A stretch of 64,000 nucleotides of DNA from Patescibacteria group bacterium (lineage in GTDB: Bacteria > Patescibacteriota > Minisyncoccia > Minisyncoccales > UBA10102), in contig JANBVJ010000003.1 in NCBI GenBank assembly GCA_024239055.1, positions 504-64,503 on the forward strand. Reading direction: 5' to 3'. Shown here piece after piece: positions 5,097 to 32,384 of this stretch. The position numbers and the translations under genes are program-made. The notes under the pieces were generated by a model, which worked only from the letters and a program-made list of their open reading frames with translations, did no database searches and was not told where the DNA came from. Position 1 is the stretch's first letter, and each line of letters opens with the position of its first letter.

Positions 5097-5325
5097 ACCA
5101 AAAGAAGTAGATGGGTTCGAAATGGTATGCGAAGAGTGTGGTGAAGAATTTGGTGTCACATATTTTGAATACACAGTAGATCAACCAATGTGTAAAATAT
5201 GCAATGATGGTGATGAACCATGTCCAGAGTGTGGAATTGCTCCTAGTCAAGATATTCGAGTTAAGCATATTTGTAAAAATTGTCAAATGAAAAAAGCAAT
5301 TGTTGTTAGTGGTAAGGCTACATAA
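5074..5325 (+). CDS. multi-CxxC zinc-ribbon protein
   Basis: CEECG, CKIC, CPECG and CKNC pairs; true start may be ATG near 5122. Confidence 0.5.
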   Translation: MIMLLSIKPKEVDGFEMVCEECGEEFGVTYFEYTVDQPMCKICNDGDEPCPECGIAPSQDIRVKHICKNCQMKKAIVVSGKAT

Positions 5326-7461: not shown

Positions 7462-8388
7462 ATGGATTGGCTAATGTCAGCAGAACAACAATCAGTAGAG
7501 AATCCACTGGAAGGAAAGTATGCAAGAATCACAGATCAAAAACTGATCGAAGAACTAGATAAGACAGAACTATGGATTGCACCAAACGAAACTGATGAAA
7601 CATTCGATATGAAAATCATTTCAGGTCAGTCACATAATTTAAAAAAATCAGCAGAGAATGTAGGACAGTTAAGACCAATTGAAGTAGCAGTTTGGAAAGA
7701 AGATCCTAATGCAAAGAGTGACAACTCACCAGAAAGAATTCACATGCGAATCATCAATGGTAGACATCGTTACAGACAGAATCCAAATTGGAGAAGAGAG
7801 TATTATGACTTTGGTGTTTACGAGAAAGATAAAGTAGATCCTGTATTGGAATACTATCTTGCAAGGGGACACTTCGATATGCAGAAGAAAGCATCAAGAG
7901 AAGAACGAAGAGTCCTTGTCATTGACATGGCAACAAGAATGATGAAACAAGGAAAACCTGCACCAGAATGTTGTGGTGAGATTGTAAAGGTGATGGAGAA
8001 TCAAGGAATATCAAATGAAAATTCCATCAGAGAAGTTTGTCCAAGAGAGTTCAAGGATCAAGAACATGCTGAAAGAAAAGCAGGTAAGACTTTTGAAAAA
8101 GCAGGAAGAGACACTAAAGAAGTTGTCAAACTCAAAAAGGTCGCAGGAGAAAAATACAAAGACATGGAGGACAAGAAAATTCTCTTAGAAACTGAGTACA
8201 CTAAAATCCAAAAAGAAAACATTGACTTGTATTCTGATCTAAAGAAACAACATGATACATTAGATGAAGTGGAATCAAAGTTGAGAGTTCTTGGTGAGAT
8301 GGGTACAAAGATAAAGTGTAAGTGCGGTAATGAAATTCCAGTGAAAGTAGATGTAACATCTTCAAAGATCATTGCAGAAAAGCAATGA
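7462..8388 (+). CDS. ParB-like nuclease-domain protein with coiled-coil C-terminal half
   Basis: LRPIEVAVW...RIINGRHRYRQN resembles the ParB/Srx core (xGxHR); K/E-rich coiled coil; lies just downstream of the iteron region. Confidence 0.55.
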   Translation: MDWLMSAEQQSVENPLEGKYARITDQKLIEELDKTELWIAPNETDETFDMKIISGQSHNLKKSAENVGQLRPIEVAVWKEDPNAKSDNSPERIHMRIINGRHRYRQNPNWRREYYDFGVYEKDKVDPVLEYYLARGHFDMQKKASREERRVLVIDMATRMMKQGKPAPECCGEIVKVMENQGISNENSIREVCPREFKDQEHAERKAGKTFEKAGRDTKEVVKLKKVAGEKYKDMEDKKILLETEYTKIQKENIDLYSDLKKQHDTLDEVESKLRVLGEMGTKIKCKCGNEIPVKVDVTSSKIIAEKQ

Positions 8389-8681: not shown

Positions 8682-8927
8682 ATGGCGAAAACAACTTCAC
8701 AGAATAAACATTGTCGAGGAATATGTGTAAGACACAAAGTAAGGAAAACAAAGTTAGCACAATCTTGGTACTCAATTGAAGGAGCAAAATATTGTTCAAG
8801 GTGTGGTGAGTTCATCAAGTGGGAAGGTTTTCACTGTCCTTGTTGTGGTGGTAGGTTACGATCAAGACCAAGAACAAATCTTGCAATTGATAAATATAGG
8901 CAAAGGAAAAAGGTCGTGTACCAATGA
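8682..8927 (+). CDS. zinc-ribbon protein (paralog of 2400..2645)
   Basis: CRGIC...CSRC...CPCCGGRLRSRPR; same architecture as 2400..2645. Confidence 0.6.
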   Translation: MAKTTSQNKHCRGICVRHKVRKTKLAQSWYSIEGAKYCSRCGEFIKWEGFHCPCCGGRLRSRPRTNLAIDKYRQRKKVVYQ

Positions 8928-9487
8928 AAGTGGATATTCATAAGACAAAGAAAAAATATCATGTGTTGATGGCAGATCCACCACACGAATACAAAAATCA
9001 AAAAACAGGTGGAGGAATGAAGTCAGGTGTTTCAAGTAAATATAAAACAATGTCATTAGATCAGATTTGTGGTTTACCAGTAAGAAAAATTGCTAACAAG
9101 AATTCAGTTTGCTTCTTATGGATTACAACTCCACTTATGGATAATGGATTTAGGATATTAGAAAGATGGGGATTCAAATACAAGACTCTAATTGTTTGGG
9201 ATAAGAGTGATAGTGGAGGATGGGGATTCTGGACAAGAACAGCAACAGAATTTCTACTAATAGGAGTTAAAGGAAAAGTAAAAGCATTCATGTCAAAGAG
9301 AACAAATGTAATCAGACACAAAAGAATTGGTCATTCTGTAAAGCCTGATGTGTTTAGGGAGATCGTAGAGGAATTAACAAAACAATTTGGTAAAAATAAA
9401 AGAATGATTGAACTTTTTGCTCGCAAACATCCATCTAAAAAACACTATGCGACAAAATGGGACTATTTCGGTAAAGAGTATTACTAA
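8924..9487 (+). CDS. MT-A70-family N6-adenine DNA methyltransferase
   Basis: ADPPHEY (DPPW-type motif IV variant), YKTMSLDQI, FLWITTP, WGFKYKTLIVWDK, HSVKPD and ELFAR match the MT-A70 pattern. Confidence 0.8.
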   Translation: MKVDIHKTKKKYHVLMADPPHEYKNQKTGGGMKSGVSSKYKTMSLDQICGLPVRKIANKNSVCFLWITTPLMDNGFRILERWGFKYKTLIVWDKSDSGGWGFWTRTATEFLLIGVKGKVKAFMSKRTNVIRHKRIGHSVKPDVFREIVEELTKQFGKNKRMIELFARKHPSKKHYATKWDYFGKEYY

Positions 9488-11850: not shown

Positions 11851-12903
11851 ATGGTATCAAAAGTCTTAATCTTAGCAGGAGTCATCGTAGTTGCTTTTGT
11901 TTTAGCAGGTGGTATGGGATTAATTAATTTTGGTGGCGCACCATCAGGTGGAGTTCCACAGCAAGTAGTTACTACTGTAGCAGGAACAGCGTTTTCAGGA
12001 GAATTAGATGTTCTATTACGACATGCTAATTCATTAGATAATTCCGATCAATTCCAAGAAGGAGCAAATAGTGACATTCACACAGTTTTCTACAAATCAC
12101 TTGACGGAGTACAATTTAGTTCAATAGGAGAAGGAGCATTAGGAACAGGTGGAGCATCGAGAGTAACAATTACACCAGACATGAATAGCATCCTATATGC
12201 AACAATAAATGTAGCAGGAATGTCACAACTTTATTCTGATCCAGAATTTACACAAGCAACCAATTCTAGAATAACAGAATTTACGTTTGAAGATGTCACA
12301 AATAACGGAGTTAAAGAATGGCTTTACAAAATAGGTTTACGTGGAATTTCAGTTCCTATTGCTGGACAAGATGCAAGTTCATTATCAATTATTGATCAAA
12401 CATGGGTTATGGCATTTCCAGTAACAATCAATTCACCAGCAAACATTCTAAATATTGGAAATCAAGCAGGAACTGTTAACTTCATCAGATGGGAACTAAC
12501 AACACCACAAGGTACAGCAACAGCACAAACTGAATATACAATTCAAATTGATAAGGTCGGTGGTCAAGCAGGAACAGAGTTTTGGGATGTAGGTCTAACC
12601 ACACTCGAAATTCCAAATATCGGTATAAAATCACTTACAGAATTTGATGAACAATTGCTTAGTGCCACAGAAACCCTCTATAAATTCAAAGTAGGTGATT
12701 CAGCAGATTTCGCAAATGCAAATTATGTAATAACTCCACAAAACGCAAACAATGTACATCCAATACCAGCAAAGATTGTTACAAGCCTATCAGATAACGG
12801 ACAAAACGATAATCTTGATGTGACATTGACTATAAAATGGCTAGATCAACGTGGTGGATCTCTTACACCAATAACAGATACAGTTCGATTAGACGAATCT
12901 TAG
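11851..12903 (+). CDS. putative major structural / surface protein with N-terminal membrane anchor
   Basis: 350 aa; N-terminus KVLILAGVIVVAFVLAGGMGLI; T/G/N/A-rich, Cys-free. Preceded by the longest noncoding region and followed by two strong stem-loops. The structural role is inference. Confidence 0.55.
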   Translation: MVSKVLILAGVIVVAFVLAGGMGLINFGGAPSGGVPQQVVTTVAGTAFSGELDVLLRHANSLDNSDQFQEGANSDIHTVFYKSLDGVQFSSIGEGALGTGGASRVTITPDMNSILYATINVAGMSQLYSDPEFTQATNSRITEFTFEDVTNNGVKEWLYKIGLRGISVPIAGQDASSLSIIDQTWVMAFPVTINSPANILNIGNQAGTVNFIRWELTTPQGTATAQTEYTIQIDKVGGQAGTEFWDVGLTTLEIPNIGIKSLTEFDEQLLSATETLYKFKVGDSADFANANYVITPQNANNVHPIPAKIVTSLSDNGQNDNLDVTLTIKWLDQRGGSLTPITDTVRLDES

Positions 12904-12938
12904 CATCAAATTTTTATAATTTTATAGTGATGGGTATG

Positions 12939-13011
12939 TGTTGATGATGAGAGAGGTTCTTGATGTAGTCATTAATATCAGGCTAATCCTCCTGCAAACT
13001 CATCATCAACA
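12939..13011 (+). other. 13 bp perfect stem (TGTTGATGATGAG / CTCATCATCAACA) with 47 nt loop
   Basis: Read directly; lies just after the 11851..12903 stop. Confidence 0.6.
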
Positions 13012-13013
13012 TT

Positions 13014-13067
13014 TTGTGTGACCAGTAAGCCCTAATGCCCAATTAGTGTAATCTCAAAGTCACACAA
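13014..13067 (+). other. 9 bp perfect stem (TTGTGTGAC / GTCACACAA)
   Basis: Read directly; second hairpin before the ATG at 13081. Confidence 0.55.
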
Positions 13068-13080
13068 CCCATTTTGTTAC

Positions 13081-13260
13081 ATGGTAAAGTACAACTGGTT
13101 CCAAATTACTACCATAATTATCGGACTTTATCTAATTTTCGAAGGTATTGGTTCATTTGTAATATTTGACGATCAAAACGACTTCTTCCAAGCAGGAAGA
13201 ATATTTAGGGTTATTGCTGGATTCTTCTTAGTGTTTGTAGTATCGAGGATGTTGAAGTAA
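13081..13260 (+). CDS. small hydrophobic 2-TM protein (59 aa)
   Basis: Just under the track cutoff. MVKYNWFQITTIIIGLYLIFEGIGSFVIF...RVIAGFFLVFVVSRMLK. Confidence 0.45.
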   Translation: MVKYNWFQITTIIIGLYLIFEGIGSFVIFDDQNDFFQAGRIFRVIAGFFLVFVVSRMLK

Positions 13261-13263
13261 CTA

Positions 13264-14721
13264 ATGGTTAGAGCAGGAGTAATAGCAGTAATTGTATTTT
13301 CTGTAGTTATAGTAGCAATGGTAGGAATATTCTCCCCATTCTTATTTCCACCAAACAACCTAATGGTTGATGACGATTCTACGATCAACTCTTTGTATGC
13401 ACAGTATGACAAAGCAATACGAGAGTTACTTGGTCAGGACTTTGAGAAACTAACAATTCCAGAAAAAGATGAGATAATGGAGATGGTAAAAGATCTTAAC
13501 GAAGAACTTGAGAAGGACATAATGGATAACAATCTAAACCAGACAGATCCTATTGACTTAGAAGATGATAACTCACTTGTTGAACCATGTGTTGGAGAAT
13601 GTCTGGATGCATTAGCAATAATAAATCCATGTGAAGAAGGTTTCATCTTTACTGACAATCTAGGTTGCATTCCTGAAACACTTGAAGGACTAGCAGACAT
13701 TCTAGACTTTGATCCATTAGATCCAGCAACAGAGTTCAAAGTAATATCAAGTATAGATTTAGTAGATTCAAACGGACAAAAATTCACTAACATAGTAGAA
13801 ACTGATCTTCCACTAACATCACTACTTACAAGGACAGGAGAAATTCTTGACTTGGGAAGAATTGACATTAGATTGATTGGAGAGTCAGACTCTAGAAATC
13901 CAATAGAGGCAGACGGATTGTTAGACATTGTATTGAACGGAGTTTCACAAAGACAGTTCAATCTAAAGCAAGTTGCAACACCAAACGAAATAACTAGCGC
14001 ATTTGAAATCAAGATTGCAGGAAAGTCACAGGAATCATTTAGTTTTGCAGGATTGCAGGACTTGGTAAGCGGTGACTTTGCAAACAACCTACAAGTTAAC
14101 TTGAGAGATTTCTCAGTAAAACAAGCAAATTCAACATTCTTCTCCCCACAAGATCTAACATTGTATGAATTAGACTTTGATTTTGATGCAGGACTAAGAA
14201 CAGTAACTGGTTCAACAGGAACAATAGGAGTAGTTGCAATTGCAGACGGAACAATAGAATTGTGTGCAGATGCAAGACAAACATTAGTAAACGGAGTTCA
14301 AGTAGATGTTCAACCAGATGTTCCAAGATCTGTTACAGTTCAGGTTCCAATGTTAGATGTAAATGGAAATCAAGTTCTAATGGATGGAGTTCCTCAGTTT
14401 AGTAATATAGTAACACCATTCTCAGTAGACATAAACTTACAAAGTATTGGTACAACGAGAATCAACTTACCAACATTTTGTGAGAAATCAGATGCAGTAA
14501 TACCAAGATCATCTATGGTTCAGATTGTAGTTTCAGGAATAAAATGTGGAACTGGTACAACTCCGACATGTGTAGACCTTCCACCACAAGTATTCCCACA
14601 AATAACTGCTGAAAATTCTGGAGTGCAATGGAAGATTGAATGTTTCATAGGAGGAATTGAAGTTATCAACCATTGGTGTACATCAAACTTTGTACCTGAT
14701 TATTCTTACAATAGGGGATAA
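13264..14721 (+). CDS. membrane-anchored large protein (putative virion/surface protein)
   Basis: 485 aa; N-terminal anchor VIAVIVFSVVIVAMVGIF; acidic linker; Cys-containing beta-rich region. Confidence 0.65.
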   Translation: MVRAGVIAVIVFSVVIVAMVGIFSPFLFPPNNLMVDDDSTINSLYAQYDKAIRELLGQDFEKLTIPEKDEIMEMVKDLNEELEKDIMDNNLNQTDPIDLEDDNSLVEPCVGECLDALAIINPCEEGFIFTDNLGCIPETLEGLADILDFDPLDPATEFKVISSIDLVDSNGQKFTNIVETDLPLTSLLTRTGEILDLGRIDIRLIGESDSRNPIEADGLLDIVLNGVSQRQFNLKQVATPNEITSAFEIKIAGKSQESFSFAGLQDLVSGDFANNLQVNLRDFSVKQANSTFFSPQDLTLYELDFDFDAGLRTVTGSTGTIGVVAIADGTIELCADARQTLVNGVQVDVQPDVPRSVTVQVPMLDVNGNQVLMDGVPQFSNIVTPFSVDINLQSIGTTRINLPTFCEKSDAVIPRSSMVQIVVSGIKCGTGTTPTCVDLPPQVFPQITAENSGVQWKIECFIGGIEVINHWCTSNFVPDYSYNRG

Positions 14722-14722
14722 G

Positions 14723-15469
14723 ATGGCTAAAGGATTCACTGACGACAAGGGAAGATTTAGACCAACAGGAAACAAAGGGGTTAGTTCCAGAACTAAATCA
14801 ATTTCTACAGAAGGACTTGAAATGTCAAAAATACAAAGTGACGTAGATATAACTACAGAAGAGATTGAATTTCAAGATAAACTAATTGAGATTGAGGCAG
14901 ACATAGAGGCAAACTTTGATGATATTTTATTCAAAACAGCATTAAACAAAAGATGTGATTTTAAAGAAGGAAAATTAATCAGAACTAAATTAACGAAGGA
15001 TGATCAAGGATTGCTACCAGAGGGAACTCAGATAGAAGAGTTTTGTGGAGCAGTTACTGATGAGTTAGGAAAATTCATTACCAAAAAATATGGAAAAGGA
15101 ATTGCATGTGAAGAAAGAGGAGTCTACACTGGTGATGACAAGGAAAATAGTGCTGGTTTCAATAGAATCGCAGGAGAAGTTCAACACGAATGGATAAGAT
15201 TACCAGATGGTACAATTATTGATGCATCAGCAGGACAATTCGTTGAGGATAAGGATTCTGTTACAAACGAAGATAGACTACGAATAATTTCTCCAGAAGA
15301 TCCAAGACAGGATTGGTATAATCCTAATTCAAAAATGTGCAATCTATGTGGTGCAAGATTAATTGCTGGTAAGTGTCCAAGTCCTGATGTTGATGCAATA
15401 ATGAAGTTAGTTAACACTGGATTAACCGTAGACGAAGCAAAAGAAAAAATTGCAAGTGAGGGATCGTAA
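14723..15469 (+). CDS. KGF-leader family member 1/15; C-terminal papain/transglutaminase-like Cys-His-Asp signature plus zinc ribbon
   Basis: Start set at ATG 14723: MAKGFTDDKGRFRPTGNKGVSSRTKSISTEGLEM. FCGAVTDELGKFI...QHEWIRLPDGTIIDAS resembles the transglutaminase-like core. CNLCG...CPSP follows. Confidence 0.7.
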   Translation: MAKGFTDDKGRFRPTGNKGVSSRTKSISTEGLEMSKIQSDVDITTEEIEFQDKLIEIEADIEANFDDILFKTALNKRCDFKEGKLIRTKLTKDDQGLLPEGTQIEEFCGAVTDELGKFITKKYGKGIACEERGVYTGDDKENSAGFNRIAGEVQHEWIRLPDGTIIDASAGQFVEDKDSVTNEDRLRIISPEDPRQDWYNPNSKMCNLCGARLIAGKCPSPDVDAIMKLVNTGLTVDEAKEKIASEGS

Positions 15470-16176
15470 TGGTAAAAGGTTTCAAAGATTCAAAAGGAAA
15501 GTTTAGACCTACTGGAAACAAAGGGGTTAGTTCCAAACAAAAAACAATTACATCAACTGGAATGAAATTAAAACCTAGAGTTGATCCTACTTACGGTTTA
15601 ATCGTAGCAAATGGTTATGATGATTTGAAACACAATCCAAACGATCCAGAAGTAAAAAAAGCCTATAACATATTCATTAAAGAAACTTTGGAACAAGCAA
15701 GAGAATTACAAAAGAACGGTGTAAAATTCCAGAGTGAACAATACAAAGATGCAAATGCGATGTTCAAAGATGTTGAAGAAAACAAACATTTGGTGTACAG
15801 ACCATCAGACAAAGATTACAAAGGTGTAGAGGATCATCCAATGTTCCAATTAACAGACATTCGAAACACAAACGGTGATAGGATGCGAGTAAATGATGTT
15901 TTTCGTGCAGTTCATGACATCAATGGTCATAAAAAGGCAAAGGCACAATTTACACCAAATGGAGAACTAGGTTCATACAACGAACATAAAAAATTGTATA
16001 GTAAGAATGCTACCAGAGCATTGTTCACTGAAACTCAAGGTCAAGGCATGTGGGTTAACTTTAACAAAAGATCAGGAACGAAAAATCGACACTTGCAGGA
16101 AATAGGAGATTTCAATGAATTAGACTTTGCTACACAAAAGGCAGATTTGTTTCCAGATTCTATAATTTTTAGATGA
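15469..16176 (+). CDS. KGF-leader family member 2/15; unknown C-terminal domain
   Basis: MVKGFKDSKGKFRPTGNKGVSSKQKTITSTGMKL; TAATG overlap; contains FRAVHDINGHKK. Confidence 0.75.
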   Translation: MVKGFKDSKGKFRPTGNKGVSSKQKTITSTGMKLKPRVDPTYGLIVANGYDDLKHNPNDPEVKKAYNIFIKETLEQARELQKNGVKFQSEQYKDANAMFKDVEENKHLVYRPSDKDYKGVEDHPMFQLTDIRNTNGDRMRVNDVFRAVHDINGHKKAKAQFTPNGELGSYNEHKKLYSKNATRALFTETQGQGMWVNFNKRSGTKNRHLQEIGDFNELDFATQKADLFPDSIIFR

Positions 16177-16182
16177 TAAGAA

Positions 16183-17049
16183 ATGGTTAAAGGATTTACT
16201 GACGAGAAAGGAAAGTTTCATCCAACTGGAAACAATGGAGGAAAGAATGCACCAGATGGCAAGTCAATAGAACCTACTGGAATGAAAATAGAAAAACAGG
16301 AAGAAGAGATTGATCTACGTCATGATAGAAGAAAGCATATTCTAACAACAGGAGAAATACTTCCTAGCAGATTATCATTGACGGTTGAAGAACAACAAGA
16401 GAACATGGAAAGGGGAGAGAAGATTATTGATCAATTTCAACAAGCAATAGATGAGAGAGACGATGATTTTTTTAATGGAAGATCAGTACGTAGTTTTATT
16501 GATACACATGGAGTAGATGTTTCAGATAAATGGATAGAAAATTTAGGAAGGGATGAAGATCAGTTCAGAGAGTTTCTTGATAACAGACTTGAAAAAAGAA
16601 AAGGAGAATGGAATCTTGCAGTACCAATACCTACAGATGGAGCATTTGAAGATCAATTAGCATCAAATTATACAACAAAGTCATACAAAGGAAGAATCTG
16701 GTGGGCAAAAATTAAACCAGAGGTTTTTCTTGAACTTGCATCACCAGTTGGTACATTTACAGAAGATGCAGTTAGTAAATACCAAAATAGTATTCAAACT
16801 GCACAACCAGTAAGCACACCACAATTAGATCTTAGTTGGGATGATGATTCAAAAAAATGGAAAGTTTCTTCACATGAAGGCAGACATCGTTCTCAGGCAT
16901 CAGTAAAAGAAGGTTTAAGTGAAATTCCAGTATGGCTTGAAACTAGAAGAGAGATATGGGAAATGACAGAAGAACAAGAAAACCAACTAAAAGACATAAT
17001 TGCAAATGGAATTACATCAGATTCATTCATTCCAGAACCAATTAATTAA
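16183..17049 (+). CDS. KGF-leader family member 3/15; C-terminal ParB-like domain
   Basis: MVKGFTDEKGKFHPTGNNGGKNAPDGKSIEPTGMKI. WKVSSHEGRHRSQASVKEGLSEIPVWLE resembles the ParB/Srx xGxHR core. Confidence 0.7.
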   Translation: MVKGFTDEKGKFHPTGNNGGKNAPDGKSIEPTGMKIEKQEEEIDLRHDRRKHILTTGEILPSRLSLTVEEQQENMERGEKIIDQFQQAIDERDDDFFNGRSVRSFIDTHGVDVSDKWIENLGRDEDQFREFLDNRLEKRKGEWNLAVPIPTDGAFEDQLASNYTTKSYKGRIWWAKIKPEVFLELASPVGTFTEDAVSKYQNSIQTAQPVSTPQLDLSWDDDSKKWKVSSHEGRHRSQASVKEGLSEIPVWLETRREIWEMTEEQENQLKDIIANGITSDSFIPEPIN

Positions 17050-18090: not shown

Positions 18091-18414
18091 ATGGTTCATC
18101 ATGGAGGAACAGGTTCTCAAACATTTTGGTTAGTTTTCGGTTTCTTTTTAGTGTTCTTAGGTTTTCTTAGCATCTTTACAGGTATTGCACAAATTGTAAC
18201 TGCACAAGATGTTACATTTCTAATTCAAATTGAGGACATGTTCTTTGTACAGGAAACCTTAACACAGTCAACTATGATTTTTAGCGGATTGATTAGGATA
18301 CTCTTGGGATTCTTCTTTGTAGTAATTGGTAATTCATTTTTCTTGAGAGGAGGAATGCATCACCATATATGCCATCCAAGAATGGGAGACTTTCATAATA
18401 GATTTGATCGATAA
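18091..18414 (+). CDS. membrane protein
   Basis: Hydrophobic FWLVFGFFLVFLGFLSIFTGI and LIRILLGFFFVVIGNSFF. Confidence 0.5.
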   Translation: MVHHGGTGSQTFWLVFGFFLVFLGFLSIFTGIAQIVTAQDVTFLIQIEDMFFVQETLTQSTMIFSGLIRILLGFFFVVIGNSFFLRGGMHHHICHPRMGDFHNRFDR

Positions 18415-18638
18415 TGTCAAAACTAATTGGTACAATAATTATTTTTGTAGGAATTCTGGTATTCTTTAGCGGAATAAATACCGCAATTCAGTTTGAAATT
18501 TTAGGACAAATTCCAATCATTGGAGGACTAATCACAATGATTGCATCAGATGATATTCAAACTGCAATGCTACATGTATTGCTTGGTTTGGTACTGATCT
18601 TTTTTGGTGTTCTATTAGTAAGGAGAAAGAAAAATTGA
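18414..18638 (+). CDS. small membrane protein
   Basis: 74 aa; three hydrophobic segments; TAATG overlap. Confidence 0.55.
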   Translation: MSKLIGTIIIFVGILVFFSGINTAIQFEILGQIPIIGGLITMIASDDIQTAMLHVLLGLVLIFFGVLLVRRKKN

Positions 18639-23006: not shown

Positions 23007-23936
23007 TTGGTTAGAGGATTTAAAGATGAAACTGGAAAGTTTCACCCCACTGAAAGGACATTAGGAAGAACTAGGGCTAATCCTCGACTTCATGACAAAA
23101 CTCTCCAAGTTGGTATTCAAGGTTCTCAAATTGCAATGACAATTGCAAAACAAGCAAAAGATTTTGCAAAGAGAAAAACAAATGAACAGATTGTAAGAAT
23201 CCAAACTACAAAGGAACGCCAAGCAAGGGAATTACAATTACGTAGAGACTTTGAAAAAAGACTGATTAGTTCTTTCAAACGTTCTAGATCATTACAGATT
23301 AAAGATCCAGTTTTATTAAAAAATCAAATTTTAATTGATGTACCTGAGATAAAGGACAATTCCGAAAATCTTAGATTCATTGAAAACATTCTAAATGACT
23401 TTCTCAAACGTGAAAAGAGGAAGGAAAAAGCAATTAAGAAAGCAAAAACTCCAGAAGAAAAAGATCGTATTGAGGCACAGTTTGATAGAGCAGAATTGTT
23501 AGAAGAGGCAGATGTTAAGAAACAATTAGGTAAATCAGAATCACAGTTAAAGAAAAAACAACAAGAAGAGTTAGCAGATTTAAAATCAGAAAAACAAGCA
23601 TTCAAGAAAAAAGAAGAGTTCATCAAAGAAGAGGCAATACAAGACTTTGTTGAAGAAGAAGTTGAGGCAACACTTGCAGAAGATGACCGAATAGTAGCAC
23701 AAGCAACTGTAGATAAAAAAGCAGAAGAACTATCAAAGGTGGCAGAAAAAACAAAAGACGAAAAGGAATTAAGAACTACTGAGGCTTTCATTGACTTTGT
23801 TGAGGCACAAAGCGATGCTCTTGATGCAATTAACACAGAGAGTGCAGAGAAAAAAGATGCAGAAGAGGCAAGGGAAGTCGCTGAAACTTTACTAGGTGAA
23901 CTTGACACAGGATTTCCACCAGAGATTGTAGGGTAG
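23007..23936 (+). CDS. KGF-leader family member 4/15; long K/E-rich coiled-coil C-terminus
   Basis: TTG start: MVRGFKDETGKFHPTERTLGRTR; remainder is E/K/A-rich and heptad-like. Confidence 0.7.
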   Translation: MVRGFKDETGKFHPTERTLGRTRANPRLHDKTLQVGIQGSQIAMTIAKQAKDFAKRKTNEQIVRIQTTKERQARELQLRRDFEKRLISSFKRSRSLQIKDPVLLKNQILIDVPEIKDNSENLRFIENILNDFLKREKRKEKAIKKAKTPEEKDRIEAQFDRAELLEEADVKKQLGKSESQLKKKQQEELADLKSEKQAFKKKEEFIKEEAIQDFVEEEVEATLAEDDRIVAQATVDKKAEELSKVAEKTKDEKELRTTEAFIDFVEAQSDALDAINTESAEKKDAEEAREVAETLLGELDTGFPPEIVG

Positions 23937-23945
23937 TGAAGAAGT

Positions 23946-24653
23946 TTGGGAGTCGCCTCATTCTTAATAAAAAGTTTTTTGGGGGTAATAATTCTCATAA
24001 TTATAATTGTAGCACTTGGAACAGTTGGAACATCATTGATAGGTGCATTAGCAGTTGATACTTCTGATGACTTTGAATCAATCATAGAACTACTAACAAA
24101 AGGTTCGCAACCGAAACCGAAACCTACAGCAAGTGAGTTGTTATGTGATCTAAAACTAATAGTACATGCAGAGTATGATCAAACTCTTCCATTAAGCGAT
24201 TTCTTTATTAGAATTATTTCATCAGGAAATGTAGATGCAATTCACGATTCAGCAAAAGAATACCAATGGAGAGACTGTCATCAATCAACTGAGGTTCCAA
24301 TTGCATCATTACTTGACTTTTCTATAGGGGATGGACAACCATTGTCATTGTTTCCAGTTTTCATAGGTGAAGGCGAAGCAGTAATTACAGAAATTGTTCT
24401 ATTAGATCCAAATACAGGACTTACAATTGATAAAAGTAACGATAGGACTTTACGTAGAAGTATAGATCTTCCAGCAGGAATAGCGATAAATCTTCCTCTG
24501 GATTTGACTCAGACCTATATAATAAAAAATATTCCTCACAGGGATTATGAATTACAGATTTTCTTTCCAGATCATGAGATAAACAGAATGGGTAAAGGAC
24601 AACCATTCATAGATGAGGTTTGTGAGTTCACAAAAATGACATGTTTCAATTGA
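23946..24653 (+). CDS. membrane-anchored protein, tandem paralog A
   Basis: N-terminal TM; shares ELLCDLKLIVHA..., PHRDYELQIFF and PFIDEVCEFTKMTC with 24675..25340. Confidence 0.65.
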   Translation: MGVASFLIKSFLGVIILIIIIVALGTVGTSLIGALAVDTSDDFESIIELLTKGSQPKPKPTASELLCDLKLIVHAEYDQTLPLSDFFIRIISSGNVDAIHDSAKEYQWRDCHQSTEVPIASLLDFSIGDGQPLSLFPVFIGEGEAVITEIVLLDPNTGLTIDKSNDRTLRRSIDLPAGIAINLPLDLTQTYIIKNIPHRDYELQIFFPDHEINRMGKGQPFIDEVCEFTKMTCFN

Positions 24654-24674
24654 CAGGAGTAAATAGGTGATATA

Positions 24675-25340
24675 ATGGGAGCAGGAGGAACAATAATCGG
24701 ACTTTTGATTCTGATTATTATAGTTGTAATAGCATGGGGATATATTCAAAATTTCATAGTAGAGATTCTTCTTACAGGGGATAGACTAGGTACTGCAATT
24801 TTTACTTCGGAGGAATTAGAGGCAACACCTACATCTGAGGAAATGGTTTGTGATCTAAGAGTTACAGTTTTTGCTACAGTTGATGAACGGTTTCCGTTTG
24901 ATGTCTTTGTAAGGGTTCCAGATAGTTCAGGAGAAGTAAAAAGATATTTCTGGACTGACTGTTCACCAGCAAAGGCAACATCATTGTTTTCATTGTTAGA
25001 TATTTCTGAAAACCTAAATGAAGCACTTGGGAATCTAGGTCAACTAGCATTTTTCAGTGAAGAAGATGTAATTACAGTGAACATTAGATTAACCGATCCA
25101 AAGACAGGTGACATCATTGATAAATTCAACAGGGGAAATCTTGAAAAACAAATCGGTGATTTACAAAACAAAAACACACCATTTGATATTCAACAGCAAT
25201 TTTTCATTCCTAATGTTCCTCATAGAGATTACGATCTTGAGATTTTCTATGGTAGAGCAATAAACGAACTACCTATAGGAACACCATTTGTTGATGAAGT
25301 ATGTCAGTTCACAAAGACAACATGCCTAGTTATTAGATAG
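24675..25340 (+). CDS. membrane-anchored protein, tandem paralog B
   Basis: N-terminal TM; EMVCDLRVTVFA..., PHRDYDLEIFY and PFVDEVCQFTKTTC. Confidence 0.65.
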   Translation: MGAGGTIIGLLILIIIVVIAWGYIQNFIVEILLTGDRLGTAIFTSEELEATPTSEEMVCDLRVTVFATVDERFPFDVFVRVPDSSGEVKRYFWTDCSPAKATSLFSLLDISENLNEALGNLGQLAFFSEEDVITVNIRLTDPKTGDIIDKFNRGNLEKQIGDLQNKNTPFDIQQQFFIPNVPHRDYDLEIFYGRAINELPIGTPFVDEVCQFTKTTCLVIR

Positions 25341-27015: not shown

Positions 27016-27780
27016 ATGGTAAAGGGATTCAAAGACTCTAAAGGTAATTTTCATCCAACAGGTTCCTCTAAAGAGGAATTTGGAATTCCAAGAAGAAGAT
27101 CAACAAAAAGACGATCTGTAGAAACTGGAGTTGGAAGAACTCTAGAAATCCAGATGCGTAGAACCCAAAAAAAATTTCCAAATGACAACCCACAACCAGA
27201 TCCAATTGGAAATATTTCTTCAACAGAGAGATGGTTAGCAGAAAAAGAAGTTGATTCAATGATAGATGAAGTAGGCTTTGATGACAATCTGTTTGAATTT
27301 GAAAATAAACAAGAGTGGTGGATCTTTGACAAGTTTGAAGATGCAAAAGAAAAAGCAATTGATCAAGAAAGAAATCTTTTAGAAACTGAGGAATCAATTG
27401 TCAGTGACCTTGCACAAAGATTTCCCAATGAAGATTTTGTTTTCATTACTGAAACAGATAAGAGAATTATTGCTAATGAAGATGCAGATAGTATTGCAAG
27501 GAACGATGGCTTGTCAGATTCTCAACGAGACAAACTTACAGATGAGATTGCAGAAAAATTAGAATCAAATCCAGTAGATTATTTTGTTAATGAACGAGGA
27601 ACGCACACAACAGAAAATCTTCTAAATGAAAGTTTCATTAGAAAAGATATTGATAAGATGGCAGAATTTGTAGTGAAAACAGATGGTGTTGGTCATACAC
27701 TTGCTAGTTATGATGGTAATGAAAAGATTGTAAAGGACAAGAAGGGCGATGAACGACTGTATTTGTATAGAGCAAACTGA
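27016..27780 (+). CDS. KGF-leader family member 5/15
   Basis: MVKGFKDSKGNFHPTGSSKEEFGIPRRRSTKRRSVETGVG; acidic middle; C-terminal DGVGHTLASYDGNEKIV. Confidence 0.75.
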   Translation: MVKGFKDSKGNFHPTGSSKEEFGIPRRRSTKRRSVETGVGRTLEIQMRRTQKKFPNDNPQPDPIGNISSTERWLAEKEVDSMIDEVGFDDNLFEFENKQEWWIFDKFEDAKEKAIDQERNLLETEESIVSDLAQRFPNEDFVFITETDKRIIANEDADSIARNDGLSDSQRDKLTDEIAEKLESNPVDYFVNERGTHTTENLLNESFIRKDIDKMAEFVVKTDGVGHTLASYDGNEKIVKDKKGDERLYLYRAN

Positions 27781-27781
27781 C

Positions 27782-28099
27782 ATGGTTAAGGGTTTTAAAG
27801 ACCGTAAAGGTCGTTTCAGACTTTTAGGAAGAAAAAAAGGCAAGTCTGGAAAAGAAAAATCATTAGAGATTCAAAGAAGTGAATTTAGTCCAGTTGATGT
27901 AGCAACTGCAAGGGGAGTAGACTTTGCATTAATGAAAGGAAGGTTACGAGGAAGTAAGAAAGATGCTTTATCAAATGTAGAATTAACATTTGAAACACAG
28001 ATACAAGCAGGAGTTCCAACGGAACTTGCAAAAGTAGAAAGAAAGATTGCACTTAATGAAGTCAAAAGAGAATTTGGAGTTAGTGAAATAGATGGCTAA
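27782..28099 (+). CDS. KGF-leader family member 6/15
   Basis: Start set at ATG 27782: MVKGFKDRKGRFRLLGRKKGKSGKEKSLEIQ. Confidence 0.65.
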   Translation: MVKGFKDRKGRFRLLGRKKGKSGKEKSLEIQRSEFSPVDVATARGVDFALMKGRLRGSKKDALSNVELTFETQIQAGVPTELAKVERKIALNEVKREFGVSEIDG

Positions 28100-28691
28100 G
28101 GGATTCACTGACGACAAGGGAAAATTCAGACCGACAGGAAATAATGGTGGACAAAGTTCTAGAGAAAAATCTATTGAAACAGAAGGTGTTCCTCTAGAAG
28201 AACTTGGAAAAGGAACCGTTGCTCTAAACGTTGATGATCCATTAGCAGAATCTAAAACAAAAAGAAGAAAACAAGCAATGATTCTAAAATTGGATGATAC
28301 TGAGGCAATTATTACTAAACCAGAAATAGAGTGGATGAGAAAATGGTTGAACAATTCATTTGGAAGTGGAACTGATGTTACTGATCAAGAATTTATTGAT
28401 GTAGTAAGAGAAAAAGTTCCAGAAAATCCAGAGGGATTCAGAATTACTCCCGAACAAACAACTCAAGGAATAGAGTTTCTAAGAAAGGCTACAAGAAGAT
28501 CACCTAACAAAGATAGATTTGGAGAAAGGGAGAGAGACATTATTGAAAACTTTAAAGAATTTAGAATAATTGATTGGTTCGATGCAAATCCAAATGTAAC
28601 ATTTTTCGTACCATTGTGGCGAGTTGAATCAGATGACGGTGACACATTCGAATATTATTTCTCTGGTGGGGAAGTGAACATAACTGGCTAG
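28092..28691 (+). CDS. KGF-leader family member 7/15
   Basis: MAKGFTDDKGKFRPTGNNGGQSSREKSIETEGVPLE; ATGGCTAA junction overlaps the upstream stop. Confidence 0.75.
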   Translation: MAKGFTDDKGKFRPTGNNGGQSSREKSIETEGVPLEELGKGTVALNVDDPLAESKTKRRKQAMILKLDDTEAIITKPEIEWMRKWLNNSFGSGTDVTDQEFIDVVREKVPENPEGFRITPEQTTQGIEFLRKATRRSPNKDRFGERERDIIENFKEFRIIDWFDANPNVTFFVPLWRVESDDGDTFEYYFSGGEVNITG

Positions 28692-28698
28692 TGGATTT

Positions 28699-28962
28699 AT
28701 GAAAGATGGAAAGTTTATTCCAACAGGTAGAAGATTCAAGAAAGGATCCAAAGTTCAATCTGTAATAGTAAACAAGAATGACTTTACTGAAAGAAAAGCA
28801 AGAGACAAAGTAAAAGAACTAGGTTTCAAATCTTCAAAGGTTGATAGAACAGCAAATACATTTCGATTCAGACAAATTGATCCATCTAAATGTAAACAAG
28901 GACAGTTTGCTACAATACCAATTACAAACGGAGTACAAGCAGTAATCTGTGAACCGATATGA
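28699..28962 (+). CDS. KGF-leader family member 8/15 (degenerate leader)
   Basis: MKDGKFIPTGRRFKKGSK. In-frame upstream codons read L-A-S-G-F just after a stop, so the leader start is decayed or uses CTG at 28684. Confidence 0.5.
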   Translation: MKDGKFIPTGRRFKKGSKVQSVIVNKNDFTERKARDKVKELGFKSSKVDRTANTFRFRQIDPSKCKQGQFATIPITNGVQAVICEPI

Positions 28963-29345
28963 CTAGAGGTTTCAAAGATCAAAGTGGAAGTTTTCATCCA
29001 ACAAACAGAAACAATGCAGGACAAAGTTCTAGAGAAAAATCTGTTGAACCAGAAGGTATGAAAATGAAACATGGAGTATGCGAAGCATTTTTAGAAAATC
29101 CACCAAGTCATAGAGGAGACGATAAAGAACACACAAATCAAGTTATGTACTCACTTGGCGATGAGAATTGTGCAAGTGTATTAACCGATGAAGAATTTTC
29201 AATGTTGCTTACAGATGATCAAGTTGCAAATACTTTTTCACCGATTGGGGAAACTGCCAAAAAATGGGAGGAGGATGAAAAGTTTCGTGCAAAAATTATA
29301 GATCGTACACAGGAATTAATTAAGGAAAAAGAAAAAAATGGCTAA
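28959..29345 (+). CDS. KGF-leader family member 9/15
   Basis: MTRGFKDQSGSFHPTNRNNAGQSSREKSVEPEGMKM; ATGA overlap. Confidence 0.7.
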   Translation: MTRGFKDQSGSFHPTNRNNAGQSSREKSVEPEGMKMKHGVCEAFLENPPSHRGDDKEHTNQVMYSLGDENCASVLTDEEFSMLLTDDQVANTFSPIGETAKKWEEDEKFRAKIIDRTQELIKEKEKNG

Positions 29346-29790
29346 AGGTTTCAAAGACTCTAAAGGAAATTTTCGACCAACTAGAAGTAATGGTAGAAAA
29401 TCTTCAAGAAAGAAAACAACAACTACAGGAGGAATTGAACCTAGAGAACCATTTGCAATAAGAGAAAGAGTCAGACTGTTAAGTGAAGATGAGTTGTCAA
29501 GAGACTTTTCTTTTAATGAATTAGAACAAGCAAGATCTGAAATTGATGATCTTCTAAAAAATAGATATTTTGATTTGAATCCAGACAGTGATTTCTTTAG
29601 TGAGACAGTAGCATTTGATTATGCAGAAGAACAAGGTAGTAATTTAGATCCTGATTTTGATATTCTACTCACTGAGTTAAGAAAAGTAAACAGAGCAAGT
29701 ACAAACAAAGTATTACGAGGTTTAGGAGGCGCACAAATTACAGATCCTGAACCAACAGGATTTCCAGAAGTAGATGAGATGATGCGTTAA
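29338..29790 (+). CDS. KGF-leader family member 10/15
   Basis: MAKGFKDSKGNFRPTRSNGRKSSRKKTTTTGGIEP; ATGGCTAA junction. Confidence 0.7.
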   Translation: MAKGFKDSKGNFRPTRSNGRKSSRKKTTTTGGIEPREPFAIRERVRLLSEDELSRDFSFNELEQARSEIDDLLKNRYFDLNPDSDFFSETVAFDYAEEQGSNLDPDFDILLTELRKVNRASTNKVLRGLGGAQITDPEPTGFPEVDEMMR

Positions 29791-30173
29791 TGGCTAAAGG
29801 TTTTAAAAAAAAAGGAAAATTCATTCCTACAGGTAACAAGAAAAAGAAATCATCAAAGTCAAAATCAACAGGAACGTTTGGAATTAAATTATTTAAAGAA
29901 AAAGAACCAGTGAGTGCAAGTAAAGTTACATCTAGAATTAAAGCAGATCTTAATGCAAGGAAAAACTTGAGAGAGAAAAACACAATGTTAGTATCAGAGA
30001 TTGAGGATAATCCAGAATCAGAGTTTAACATTCCTAGACGACAGAAGATAAAAACAAATAATTCTGAAATCAAACGTTTAAACAAAGACATTAAGAATAA
30101 TTTCAAATCACTTAGTAAGGAACAGCAACAAAAACTTCCAGTTGAAGTACAGTCAAGATTGAGGACAGGATGA
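29790..30173 (+). CDS. KGF-leader family member 11/15 (K-rich)
   Basis: MAKGFKKKGKFIPTGNKKKKSSKSKSTGTFGIKL; TAATG overlap. Confidence 0.65.
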   Translation: MAKGFKKKGKFIPTGNKKKKSSKSKSTGTFGIKLFKEKEPVSASKVTSRIKADLNARKNLREKNTMLVSEIEDNPESEFNIPRRQKIKTNNSEIKRLNKDIKNNFKSLSKEQQQKLPVEVQSRLRTG

Positions 30174-30835
30174 TGGCAAAGGGATTCAAAGACAATAAAG
30201 GAAAATTCAGACCAACAGGACAACCAGCAGGAAGGTCAAAGAAAGAAAAAACAATTGACACCACAAGTGGTACACTGATAACAGAAGGAATTTTCGAGTT
30301 TATTCCTAGAGAAACAGGAGTTTCTTTTGATACTGCAAGTGAAAGATTTATTGAATTTAGAGAAATGAATGAAGATTTGGAAGGATTTAGTTTTGATCCA
30401 GTAATAAATCAGGGATTTGATTTCAACAATAATATTCAAGCAAAAGAGTTTCATGATCTGTTTGTAGAAGGAGGAGACGAAAATCCTGTATTTGTAATTG
30501 GTGTTCAAAATCAGTTAGGAAAAAATCCAACTAGAGCAACTCAATCAGCATACGAGGAAGTAAAAAATGATGGAAGAAATCCATTGATTGGAGGTTCGAT
30601 AGATGGATTGACAGGAGAACCACTTACAGATGTAGCATTTCCAGTTTCAGGAATTAACAGAGAGGAGGCATTTGAATTAGCAGATGAATATGCTCAAGAT
30701 TCTATTGCAACAATATTCAATAGTGGTCAATTCAGAGTTGAAAATGTAAATCCAGAAGAACCATTCGTGACCTCAACTATAGAATCAATTTCTGCATCAG
30801 AACTAATTGCAATGCAAAGGAAACCAAAACCATAG
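30170..30835 (+). CDS. KGF-leader family member 12/15
   Basis: (M)MAKGFKDNKGKFRPTGQPAGRSKKEKTIDTTSGTL; ATGA overlap. Confidence 0.75.
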   Translation: MMAKGFKDNKGKFRPTGQPAGRSKKEKTIDTTSGTLITEGIFEFIPRETGVSFDTASERFIEFREMNEDLEGFSFDPVINQGFDFNNNIQAKEFHDLFVEGGDENPVFVIGVQNQLGKNPTRATQSAYEEVKNDGRNPLIGGSIDGLTGEPLTDVAFPVSGINREEAFELADEYAQDSIATIFNSGQFRVENVNPEEPFVTSTIESISASELIAMQRKPKP

Positions 30836-31014
30836 AAAATTGTACGTTGAACAAAACTTACAACTACTTATATACAAATTATTAGAGAATTAGGAGGAAG
30901 AGTATTGAACCGAGCACGAATCTACATGTGTGGATTAGAGTATATTCCTATTTTTATCTGGACACGATACTGTGCTTACATGATACGAAACGAGTTGAGG
31001 TCAAATTATCAATA

Positions 31015-31209
31015 ATGTATGGCGATCCAGAAAAGAGCAATATTAAGAATACATTCGTGCCTAATTGTACGAATGAAACATTTTCAGTAAACAATCTTGT
31101 ATTTATGCTCAAGCAAGGATTTGTCAAATTGAGTATGATTCCAGAGGATGTTAAGTTCAGGGTAGAGGCAGAAATCATCAAAAGACATCCAGAAATTAAG
31201 ACCAAATAG
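31015..31209 (+). CDS. hypothetical protein (non-family insert in the array)
   Basis: Start set at ATG 31015 (MYGDPEKSNIKN...); the track start at 30928 lies in a promoter-like AT-rich region. Confidence 0.4.
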   Translation: MYGDPEKSNIKNTFVPNCTNETFSVNNLVFMLKQGFVKLSMIPEDVKFRVEAEIIKRHPEIKTK

Positions 31210-31265
31210 ATCGCAAAACCTCACACAATAACCTAATATCACTTGAATTGCCATTTTATTGCGTA

Positions 31266-31724
31266 TTGGCAAGAGGATTCAAAGATGAAACTGGTAAGTT
31301 TCATCCAACAGGGAACTCTGGTATCAAAAAAACTCCTACTCTCAAGTCTGTAAAAACAGAAGGAGTTAAGATGGAAAAATTAGAAACAGTAGAAAAAGAA
31401 GAACCAAAATTAGAAATTGATAGAATTAGAGCAAAATTATCTGAGAATCAAATTGAAGAATGGGAAGATGTAGCAAGGTCAGAAGTTATTGATGTAAAAC
31501 AAGAACATGTTGATGGAATGCCTGTTCTAACTGTTTTATTCCAGAATGGTGATGAATGGTTTGAGTTTGATCAGGTCAAACATCAGGAGAGGTTCATTGA
31601 CAATAATGAATTAACAAAAAGTGATGCAGTTGGCAAATTTATCAAAGTAGATCATCCAATGATTGAAGGTTACATTAACTTAATCACTGGAAAATCATTG
31701 TTTGAAACAAAGGAGAAAGTATAA
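31266..31724 (+). CDS. KGF-leader family member 13/15
   Basis: Start set at TTG 31266 by family alignment: (M)ARGFKDETGKFHPTGNSGIKKTPTLKSVKTEGVKME. Confidence 0.7.
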   Translation: MARGFKDETGKFHPTGNSGIKKTPTLKSVKTEGVKMEKLETVEKEEPKLEIDRIRAKLSENQIEEWEDVARSEVIDVKQEHVDGMPVLTVLFQNGDEWFEFDQVKHQERFIDNNELTKSDAVGKFIKVDHPMIEGYINLITGKSLFETKEKV

Positions 31725-32161
31725 TGGCAAAAGGTTTCAAAGACAGAACTGGTTCATTTCATCCAATGAATAAAAACAGTAGTGGAAAAAGTTCTAGAAA
31801 CAAATCAGTTGAACCAAAGGCAGTTTTACTAAAAGATTTCAAAGTTTTTGAAACATTTTCATTTCCAGATTCAGGAGCAGACTTTGAAAGAACTCATGTA
31901 GATACTATTGAAGCACTAGATTTCGAAGATGCAGAAAAGAAAGTTGCAGAACTATTCAAGATTGAGCAATCAGATTTAGAGGAACAAGGAGACTTTGGAG
32001 AAAACATAGTTAGTTATAGTTTTGAAACAATTCCTCACGATGGAAGAACTGGTGAAAAGATTACAGAACAACAAGCAGACAGACTAAGAGATCAAGATGA
32101 AGAATTAGTTTCTGATGTTATTCATGGTGTAGATGTAGAGTTAGAAGAGGAGTCAGAGTAA
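31724..32161 (+). CDS. KGF-leader family member 14/15 (acidic C-terminus)
   Basis: MAKGFKDRTGSFHPMNKNSSGKSSRNKSVEPKAV; TAATG overlap. Confidence 0.7.
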   Translation: MAKGFKDRTGSFHPMNKNSSGKSSRNKSVEPKAVLLKDFKVFETFSFPDSGADFERTHVDTIEALDFEDAEKKVAELFKIEQSDLEEQGDFGENIVSYSFETIPHDGRTGEKITEQQADRLRDQDEELVSDVIHGVDVELEEESE

Positions 32162-32162
32162 A

Positions 32163-32384
32163 ATGGTTAAAGGTTTCAGAGATGCAACAGGGAGATTTAG
32201 ACCTACTGGAAAGAACAAAGGTAAGTCAAAGAGACGTAAGAGTTTGGGAGTAGAGATAGTTTCAGTTACTCTTGAACCAAAAACTATCAACAAAGTAAAA
32301 CAAAGACAGGTAAAGAACATCAAGAAAGGAACACCAAATCCTTCATTCTCTCAGGCAATCAATCAATTAGTAGATCAGGCATAG
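32163..32384 (+). CDS. KGF-leader family member 15/15; C-terminal RHH-like module
   Basis: MVKGFRDATGRFRPTGKNKGKSKRRKSLGVEIVSVTLEPKTINKVKQRQV...SFSQAINQLVDQA (strand-helix-helix pattern). Confidence 0.65.
   Translation: MVKGFRDATGRFRPTGKNKGKSKRRKSLGVEIVSVTLEPKTINKVKQRQVKNIKKGTPNPSFSQAINQLVDQA

Follow-up and report, generated by a model that had tools for sequence, protein, structure and literature searches.

A shared N-terminal leader joins many unrelated proteins in an uncultured deep-sea, virus-like element: a candidate packaging or delivery tag

The DNA analysed here, referred to as the window, is a 64-kb stretch of a contig of an NCBI metagenome-assembled genome (MAG) named 'Patescibacteria group bacterium' (locus tags KJI69_), and comes from subsurface sediment of the Arctic Mid-Ocean Ridge (AMOR; BioSample traced to PMC7768721). 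It contains 15 genes, termed here members 1 to 15, each of which encodes a basic N-terminal leader of ~36 residues followed by one unrelated, mostly acidic cargo of 37-270 residues. A previous reading, made from the letters alone (the sequence-only reading), had proposed that these genes implement the logic of a 'split polyvalent protein' as many small proteins with a common tag. Members 1 to 3 lie back to back at 14723-17049 and form the first cluster of the family. The tagged genes and the leaders of the first three are listed below, by position in the window.

14723-15469, + strand: member 1 gene, the open reading frame (ORF) containing FCGAVTDELGKFI, QHEWIRLPDGTIIDAS and CNLCGARLIAGKC
14723..14830, + strand: leader of member 1, ~36 residues, MAKGFTDDKGRFRPTGNKGVSSRTKSISTEGLEMSK, delimited by the logo of 128 leaders
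15469-16176, + strand: member 2 gene, on which the sequence-only reading did not comment
15469..15579, + strand: leader of member 2; leaderless orthologues begin at its end
16183-17049, + strand: member 3 gene, the ORF containing SSHEGRHRSQAS and IPVWLE
16183..16290, + strand: leader of member 3, delimited by the logo
23007..23936, + strand: member 4, a leader (TTG start) and a 270-residue E/K-rich cargo, 53% identical to its orthologue in a related contig
27016..32384, + strand: members 5-15, a near-contiguous array of 11 tagged genes; the stop and start codons of several overlap
30928-31209, + strand: an untagged 93-residue ORF that interrupts the members 5-15 array

The leader starts as M-[AV]-[KR]-G-F-[KT]-D-x-x-G-x-F-[RH]-P-T-G and continues as a basic Ser/Lys-rich stretch to ...G-[VIM]-[KR]. 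Back-translated into a DNA pattern, it matched 11 times in the window and 0 times in 100 shuffles. Synonymous codons alternate at its conserved positions (GGA/GGT, TTC/TTT, AAA/AAG, CCA/CCT/CCG), which shows that the peptide is under selection and not a DNA repeat; a DNA-level repeat or recombination cassette was rejected on this ground. The DNA pattern was also found on 36 metagenome contigs from deep-sea sediment whole-genome shotgun sets, Tara Oceans and the Joint Genome Institute, often several times per contig, while IMG/VR and the GTDB representative genomes gave 0 matches each. With the window and L001, another contig of this MAG, there are 38 sources, in which 165 tagged ORFs carry 128 distinct leaders and fall into 65 cargo clusters. 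Cargos were clustered after removal of the first 38 residues, and the DNA pattern was strict; 65 is a lower bound. The idea that one tag is common to many small proteins is borne out, and the family is larger than first seen.

In the logo of the 128 distinct leaders, G4, F5, F12 and P14 are near-invariant and the information collapses after residue ~36-38. The AlphaFold2 (AF2) model of member 1 shows the leader as a weak β-hairpin (residues 4-14) followed by disorder. The boundary between leader and cargo is also visible in individual genes, in that two orthologues of member 2 that lack the leader (P0059 and P0064) begin exactly where the leader ends. Two proteins encoded elsewhere in the window make the same point from the other side. 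Firstly, a zincin-like HEIVGH protein (37265-38029) with no Pfam match is untagged in the window, whereas its orthologues in L001 and in another contig (L010), 46-56% identical, are tagged. Secondly, a DUF7447 protein (45710-46039) is likewise untagged here and has tagged orthologues in 5 loci, at 55-60% identity. The tag is therefore gained and lost, and it is a real, modular unit.

Leader and cargo differ in charge. The isoelectric point (pI) of the leader is 10-11.5 in most members (8.1 in member 3 and 6.1 in member 7), that of the cargo 4.05-5.2 in 11 of the 15. Members 9 and 14 had been singled out as strongly acidic, in the manner of DNA mimics; their cargos are indeed acidic (pI 4.5 and 4.05, respectively), but with 11 of 15 cargos alike in this respect acidity is a trait of the family and these two are not special; DNA mimicry gained no support from the analysis. 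Two other kinds of locus were considered and rejected. A family of precursors resembling those of ribosomally synthesised and post-translationally modified peptides does not fit cargos of 37-270 residues, mostly above 90, two of which hold folded domains in their models. A polymorphic toxin locus was rejected because immunity genes are not interleaved between the cargos.

Among the cargos, that of member 2 gives the clearest link to known proteins.

15580..16176, + strand: cargo of member 2, a domain in common with phage large polyvalent proteins (phrog_3170, tblastn and phmmer)

Member 2 is the most conserved member of the family, with 53 metagenome homologues found. Its invariant residues are N142, D143, F145, R146, H149, D150, G153 and H154 (NDxFRxxHDxxGH), followed by GE, H, ETxGQ and WxN. 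It alone of the 15 members has a PHROG or Pfam match, to phrog_3170 (5.7e-10), a family of unknown function; searches of PDB by sequence and by profile gave no match for it, and no relatives were found in GTDB representative genomes. Against GenBank phages, tblastn returned 214 records. The domain lies at residues 861-1065 of a 2772-residue 'large polyvalent protein' of Planktothrix phage Pag-Yong1 (8.5e-20), which carries Pfam LPD38 elsewhere, and at residues 806-993 of gp16 of Octadecabacter virus BD1 (2986 residues, 3.3e-29), which carries Pfam ART-PolyVal and LPD22 elsewhere and is encoded between the lysozyme and tailspike genes. Homology of the cargo to the internal segments of these two giant proteins was also recorded at 1e-27 to 1e-17. 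The domain also matches internally the 858-residue 'structural protein' gp205 of Rhodococcus phage E3, whose gene adjoins a tail fibre gene, and is found on actinobacterial linear plasmids. By sequence homology, the member 2 cargo is thus demonstrably a module of bona fide polyvalent proteins encoded among virion genes, and nothing else in the data supports the 'split polyvalent protein' idea as strongly.

Member 3 had been described as ParB/Srx-like on the basis of its motifs. All motif strings quoted for it and for member 1 are present in + strand ORFs, at the positions given here.

16384..16590, + strand: N-terminal helical region of member 3, residues ~68-136 (AF2 helices 68-91, 102-107, 111-123 and 125-136; predicted local distance difference test score, pLDDT, 54-82)
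16690..17049, + strand: C-terminal ParB/Srx-fold domain of member 3, residues ~170-288 (pLDDT 75-92)
16873-16890, + strand: HEGRHR of member 3
16924-16935, + strand: IPVW of member 3

An alignment of member 3 with eight homologues (9 sequences) shows H231, G233, R234, H235, R236, I248, P249 and V250 to be invariant. The AF2 model built on this alignment is confident only in its C-terminal part. In a Foldseek search of PDB, ranks 1-22 are all ParB, sulfiredoxin (Srx), PadC, Osa or Atu1540, at probabilities of 0.44-0.99, and include Caulobacter crescentus ParB (7bm8). Human and plant sulfiredoxins (1xw3, 3cyi, 7lj1 and 6ky4) are matched at probabilities of 0.97-0.99, with a target TM-score (template modelling score) of ~0.56 and a root-mean-square deviation of 3.0 Å over 88-89 columns. 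An hhalign comparison of the member 3 family with human Srx gave an E-value of 0.02 and paired TPQLDLSW with VPPIDVLW, EGRHR with GGCHR and IPVW with IPAK at identical spacing. No Pfam model, ParBc included, matches member 3 at E <= 1, PDB sequence and profile searches gave no match, and tblastn found no relatives in GenBank phages. Together, the top Foldseek matches, the invariant HEGRHR...IPV and the in-register alignment with Srx bear out the earlier assignment, and at the level of predicted fold and motif they support member 3 as a divergent member of the ParB/Srx superfamily. The strand-GxHR-helix-IPV of member 3 is spaced as the GGCHR...IPA of Srx. Member 3 differs from the known superfamily in having its own N-terminal helical domain, in escaping the Pfam ParBc model and in having neither a ParA partner nor a parS context. 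Proteins of this superfamily would be expected to act as nucleases or NTPases (PMC5512222); by analogy, the member 3 domain is probably a nucleoside triphosphate-binding or nicking-nuclease module. Iyer et al. (2017) described solo and polyvalent DdrB-like ParB domains that adjoin virion genes and are predicted to be injected (PMC5512222).

The cargo of member 1 carries a set of residues that never varies.

14831..15469, + strand: cargo of member 1, a Cys-His-Asp domain (core ~98-203) with a C-terminal CxxC-x8-C knuckle and helices, from the profile search
15044..15046, + strand: codon of Cys108, the candidate nucleophile (FCGAVT), Cys in 44/44 aligned instances
15185..15223, + strand: His155 to Asp167, HEWIRLPDGTIID, with His in 65/65 and Asp in 66/66
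15338..15376, + strand: C206-x2-C209-x8-C218 knuckle, invariant in 7 close homologues

A profile search of 1.84 billion representatives with member 1 retrieved 65 proteins. In the domain instances aligned from these 65 representatives, clustered at 50% identity, Gln172 (66/66) joins the Cys, His and Asp of the list above as a residue never substituted where aligned, and the 7 close homologues keep C108, H155 and D167 together with the knuckle. The AF2 model (mean pLDDT 67) places Cys108 as the last residue of a short helix (104-108), with helix 112-123 beginning four residues further on; the next two predicted strands, 152-159 and 165-167, carry His155 and Asp167, respectively. This order of predicted secondary structure is compatible with what a papain-like enzyme would show. 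The sequence-only reading had called the domain transglutaminase/papain-like, and the Cys-His-Asp order it relied on is invariant in the family, but no fold or profile match was obtained. The best Foldseek match in PDB is SpvD, a Cys-His-Asp hydrolase, which is non-significant (E = 0.42, probability 0.06); Foldseek against BFVD and searches of PDB by sequence and profile returned nothing. In Pfam, 3 of 26 family sequences match the uncharacterised YunG family weakly (best 7.5e-5). By hhalign, the probability was 0.6% with four E. coli NlpC/P60 proteins and 0.5% with the yeast PNGase core. The 'zinc ribbon' also proposed for member 1 is in fact the CxxC-x8-C knuckle, which offers only three local cysteines and occurs in only ~12 of 69 family domain instances, being confined to the close subfamily.

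Judging by its conserved residues, the member 1 cargo is probably a thiol-dependent hydrolase or transferase, and the papain/transglutaminase reading is a plausible and reasonable hypothesis. Alternatively, the Cys, His and Asp may be metal ligands of a structural or redox site, in which case the 'enzyme-like' description would be wrong. The missing match to any thiol peptidase or transglutaminase fits such a site, as do the additional cysteines conserved in the close subfamily (C78, C206, C209 and C218). This is a serious alternative, though we consider it less likely than not, given the papain-like order and spacing, with a Cys close to where a predicted helix begins, His and Asp 12 residues apart on consecutive strands and a Gln at +5, and given that the best match, though non-significant, is the hydrolase SpvD. 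The member 1 core is also found inside multidomain proteins of 500-1500 residues (P0080-P0125), where only residues ~98-203 match; some of these carriers hold Peptidase_M60, RelA_SpoT, CCA-adding nucleotidyltransferase or Phage_GPD domains.

The remaining members are less informative, and two earlier assignments gained no support here. Member 4 had been described as a long coiled coil. Charged residues make up 43% of its sequence, Pro and Gly are almost missing from residues 40 to 296, and the cargo is probably one long helix; a hydrophobic periodicity of 3.5 residues, however, does not rise above that of shuffles (p = 0.11-0.75), which leaves the coiled coil without support. Member 15 (at 32163) had been thought to end in a ribbon-helix-helix-like motif, for which neither Pfam nor the PDB profile search gave a match; hhalign against Arc, Mnt, CopG, NikR and ParD gave a probability of 0.2%, these being weak tests for a motif of 40 residues. 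Members 5-15 have no Pfam, PHROG or GenBank phage match, and nothing in phages or plasmids was matched by members 1 and 3-15. When members 5-15 were scanned together with 48 cargo representatives of other contigs, Pfam returned only DUF7447 and PHROG four families of unknown function. Beyond member 2, tblastn of the cargos against GenBank phages added two families. The first is tagged DUF7447, which a spindle-shaped virus of Nitrosopumilaceae encodes as its ORF18, at 52-59% identity. In the second, the tagged cargo at L005:2879-3547 matches (1e-8) a 145-residue gene of an uncultured podovirus (MW202524), to which the depositors gave the label 'restriction alleviation protein lar'.

Relatives of the locus show how the tagged genes change. 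A 76-kb contig from another AMOR-type sediment sample (L041) has flanking genes collinear with those of the window, at 75-91% protein identity. Member 1 is absent from it and two other tagged genes stand in its place, one of which has its own ParB/Srx-like HQGRHR...IPV domain. The orthologues of members 2, 3 and 4 are 78%, 24% and 53% identical, respectively. Conserved scaffold genes combined with rapidly exchanged tagged genes are the pattern of a conflict locus, as in an arms race. A second lineage of the same tag is present in the sample of the window itself: L001:375-15859 (ENA ERZ23499938 scaffold_78) is an uninterrupted array of 21 consecutive tagged genes with the leader variant MKGF[KT]DSNNKFHPIT.YKKG.RKSRDQS.KT.GV[KR].

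The contig was binned as Patescibacteria, yet it looks like a mobile element or virus. Its GC content is ~33%, all ORFs above ~90 residues with plausible coding character lie on the + strand across the 64 kb, and no tRNA genes were found in the window. Small CxxC proteins are numerous in the window. PHROG and Pfam scans of 30 further ORFs matched only MT-A70, SNF2, a HerA-like ATPase, GmrSD_N and, weakly, DprA/SLOG. The untagged genes of interest are:

5325-6911, + strand: P-loop ATPase, 528 residues, without relatives in GenBank phages
7462-8388, + strand: 308-residue protein with a putative ParB-like INGRHRY motif; no BLAST similarity to member 3
8924-9487, + strand: MT-A70 adenine methylase, a separate untagged gene
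11851-14721, + strand: two large proteins with N-terminal hydrophobic anchors, 83-86% identical in L041, directly 5' of the first tagged cluster
within 18091-18638 or 23946-25340: two small proteins (107 and 74 residues), apparently with two transmembrane helices each, no family match
within the same intervals, + strand: a pair of paralogous anchored proteins, no family match
32528-33769, + strand: DUF262/GmrSD_N (ParB-like) protein, Pfam 1.6e-14, directly 3' of the large leader array
55317-56420, + strand: P-loop ATPase, HerA/FtsK-like
58288-62010, + strand: SNF2-type helicase of 1240 residues with N-terminal Cys clusters, a separate untagged gene

The MT-A70 adenine methylase, the SNF2 helicase and the zincin-like HExxH protein are typical components of polyvalent proteins. 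With member 3, the DUF262/GmrSD_N protein and the protein at 7462-8388, the window may encode three ParB/Srx-type proteins. The first tagged cluster is situated in a region rich in small membrane proteins, and the anchored and transmembrane proteins of 11851-14721, 18091-18638 and 23946-25340 are possible virion or envelope components. No informative relatives of the two ATPases were found in GenBank phages. The DUF7447 protein of the window (45710-46039) is 52% identical to ORF18 of the 'Nitrosopumilaceae spindle-shaped virus' BK067787. It is the sole gene common to the two, and the leader motif is absent from BK067787. Because of this one gene in common with a Nitrosopumilaceae virus, there is a weak hint that the host might be a marine ammonia-oxidising archaeon rather than a member of the Patescibacteria.

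How might the tag function? The reading that we prefer, by analogy with the capsid-targeting sequence (CTS) of phage T4 and at a probability of roughly 0.42, is that it serves packaging or delivery. The ~36-residue tag would be an address label on separately encoded cargos, one cargo per gene, by which an uncultured, virus-like element of the deep sea loads them into its particle (or transfer apparatus), perhaps with subsequent cleavage of the tag. Arriving in the next host cell along with the DNA, the tagged proteins would act there at an early stage on its defences and physiology, some of them possibly as enzymes. They would thus do the job of T4 internal proteins and of polyvalent proteins by means of a swappable set of separately tagged genes. 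In favour of this reading are the modularity of the tag, the homology of member 2 to polyvalent proteins, the ParB/Srx fold of member 3, the cargo with a match labelled 'lar', the exchange of tagged genes between the window and L041, and the place of the first cluster right behind the two large anchored proteins of 11851-14721. A bolder form of this proposal is more doubtful still: a portable, hitherto undescribed tag in an uncultured, possibly archaeal, deep-sea lineage would load at least 65 effector families into its particle, to be delivered along with the genome. The principle of T4 would then have been invented a second time, independently, and the tagged set would be polyvalent proteins in 'disassembled' form.

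Several results weigh against packaging or delivery. No capsid, portal, terminase or secretion-system genes were identified in the window by PHROG and Pfam scans and ATPase searches, so that particle production by the element is putative. Similarity between the leader and the T4 CTS could not be detected, and a tblastn search of GenBank phages with the leader gave chance-level matches only (best E = 9). A protease was not identified either. The 21-gene array of L001 is not visibly beside structural-like genes. As for the cargos, the 'split polyvalent' logic stands for member 2, whose cargo is homologous to polyvalent segments; of ~63 cargo families tested against GenBank phages, it alone maps into polyvalent proteins, and nearly all others have no known relative in Pfam, PHROG and GenBank phage searches. 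Foldseek matched member 3 at modest E-values (6e-3 to 0.3), since confidence is low in half of its model, and the papain/transglutaminase fold of member 1 was not confirmed by Foldseek, Pfam, the PDB profile search or the two hhalign tests.

Three other functions for the tag have to be weighed against this. Firstly, the tag may be an intracellular localisation or nucleic-acid-binding arm by which, during infection, acidic cargos are tethered to a common hub protein, to a replication compartment or to the DNA of the virus, with no packaging or delivery at all. The opposed charges of most leaders (pI 10-11.5) and most cargos (pI 4-5) would suit such an arm, and the large arrays (the one at 27-32 kb in the window, and that of L001) adjoin replication-type genes encoding DUF262, HATPase-like and RPA-like oligonucleotide-binding (OB) proteins. 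The strict conservation of G4, F5, F12 and P14, on the other hand, points to a specific protein-protein fit and not to generic charge, and the homology to virion-associated giant proteins favours delivery; we consider a purely intracellular role unlikely.

Secondly, the tag could be a virion-anchoring peptide of structural or decoration proteins. Its hairpin would plug into a capsid, envelope or tegument, and the cargos, whether exposed or within the tegument, would serve for example host recognition or particle stabilisation without being injected. This is in keeping with tagged clusters among membrane-protein genes that look structural, with the E3 homologue of member 2, annotated as structural and adjoining a tail fibre gene, and with the turnover of slots, which is also typical of host-recognition genes. 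It is improbable nonetheless, as the ParB/Srx and Cys-His-Asp domains have the character of intracellular, enzyme-like modules, the cargos are without signal peptides or transmembrane segments, and 65 unrelated cargo clusters are many for decoration. Thirdly, a plasmid or other non-viral mobile element, in which a secretion machinery, conjugation-like or other, would recognise the tag for export or translocation and the cargos would be secreted or transferred effectors or polymorphic toxins, would accord with polyvalent proteins on conjugative elements (PMC5512222), the member 2 domain on linear plasmids, the HerA/FtsK-like ATPase and the failure of the window scans to find a viral hallmark gene, but is very unlikely because those Pfam and PHROG scans found no relaxase, VirB4, VirD4 or pilus genes either, no immunity genes lie between the cargos, and the only gene in common with a classified element points to a spindle-shaped virus of Nitrosopumilaceae.

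If the packaging or delivery reading is true, this would be the first such tag system outside T4-like phages, in an element without recognisable tailed-phage genes, and 'tag plus swappable cargo' and 'all fused into one giant protein' would be alternative solutions for early-acting delivered effectors. The tag could then be tested as a protein-loading signal and used as a sequence handle to harvest from metagenomes candidate counter-defence proteins that cannot otherwise be annotated, the strict pattern already giving 65 cargo clusters. Regardless of mechanism, the Cys-His-Asp family, with its weak similarity to YunG, and the NDxFRxxHDxxGH polyvalent domain have gained a context.

Comparison with known systems places the family between two precedents. 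In T4, the CTS is common to otherwise unrelated internal proteins, for example the GmrSD inhibitor IPI*, and T4-type internal proteins are encoded in variable gene clusters and thought to counter host defences (PMC3012670). The likeness to these CTS-tagged proteins (IPI, IPII, IPIII and Alt) lies in one short N-terminal tag on unrelated small proteins at a plastic locus. The differences are that the T4 tag is ~10 residues long against ~36 here, without sequence similarity; that the present element has no recognisable tailed-phage genes and no identified prohead protease or cleavage; and that its family is much larger, with 15 members in the window and 21 in L001. Papain/transglutaminase-like enzymes resemble member 1 in their Cys...His...Asp order, the Cys being followed closely by a predicted helix and the His and Asp sitting on neighbouring strands, but offer no significant fold or profile match.

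The second precedent is the large polyvalent protein (Iyer, Burroughs, Anand, de Souza and Aravind 2017, PMC5512222), with which the locus has in common the member 2 module, the ParB/Srx-fold module of member 3 and, as separate genes of the window, the zincin-like HExxH protein, the SNF2 helicase and the adenine methylase. The Pfam LPD, MPTase-PolyVal and ART-PolyVal models match none of the proteins of the window. Polyvalent components, ParB/Srx domains included, are known also as solo genes beside virion genes (PMC5512222). The difference is one of linkage: 2-15 domains are fused in polyvalent proteins, whereas here each polypeptide carries one cargo and the tag replaces the covalent connection. 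By analogy, then, the T4 CTS is the nearest functional precedent and the polyvalent protein the nearest compositional one; sets of tagged, delivered effectors are a known principle, while the tag itself is novel and belongs to an uncharacterised element.

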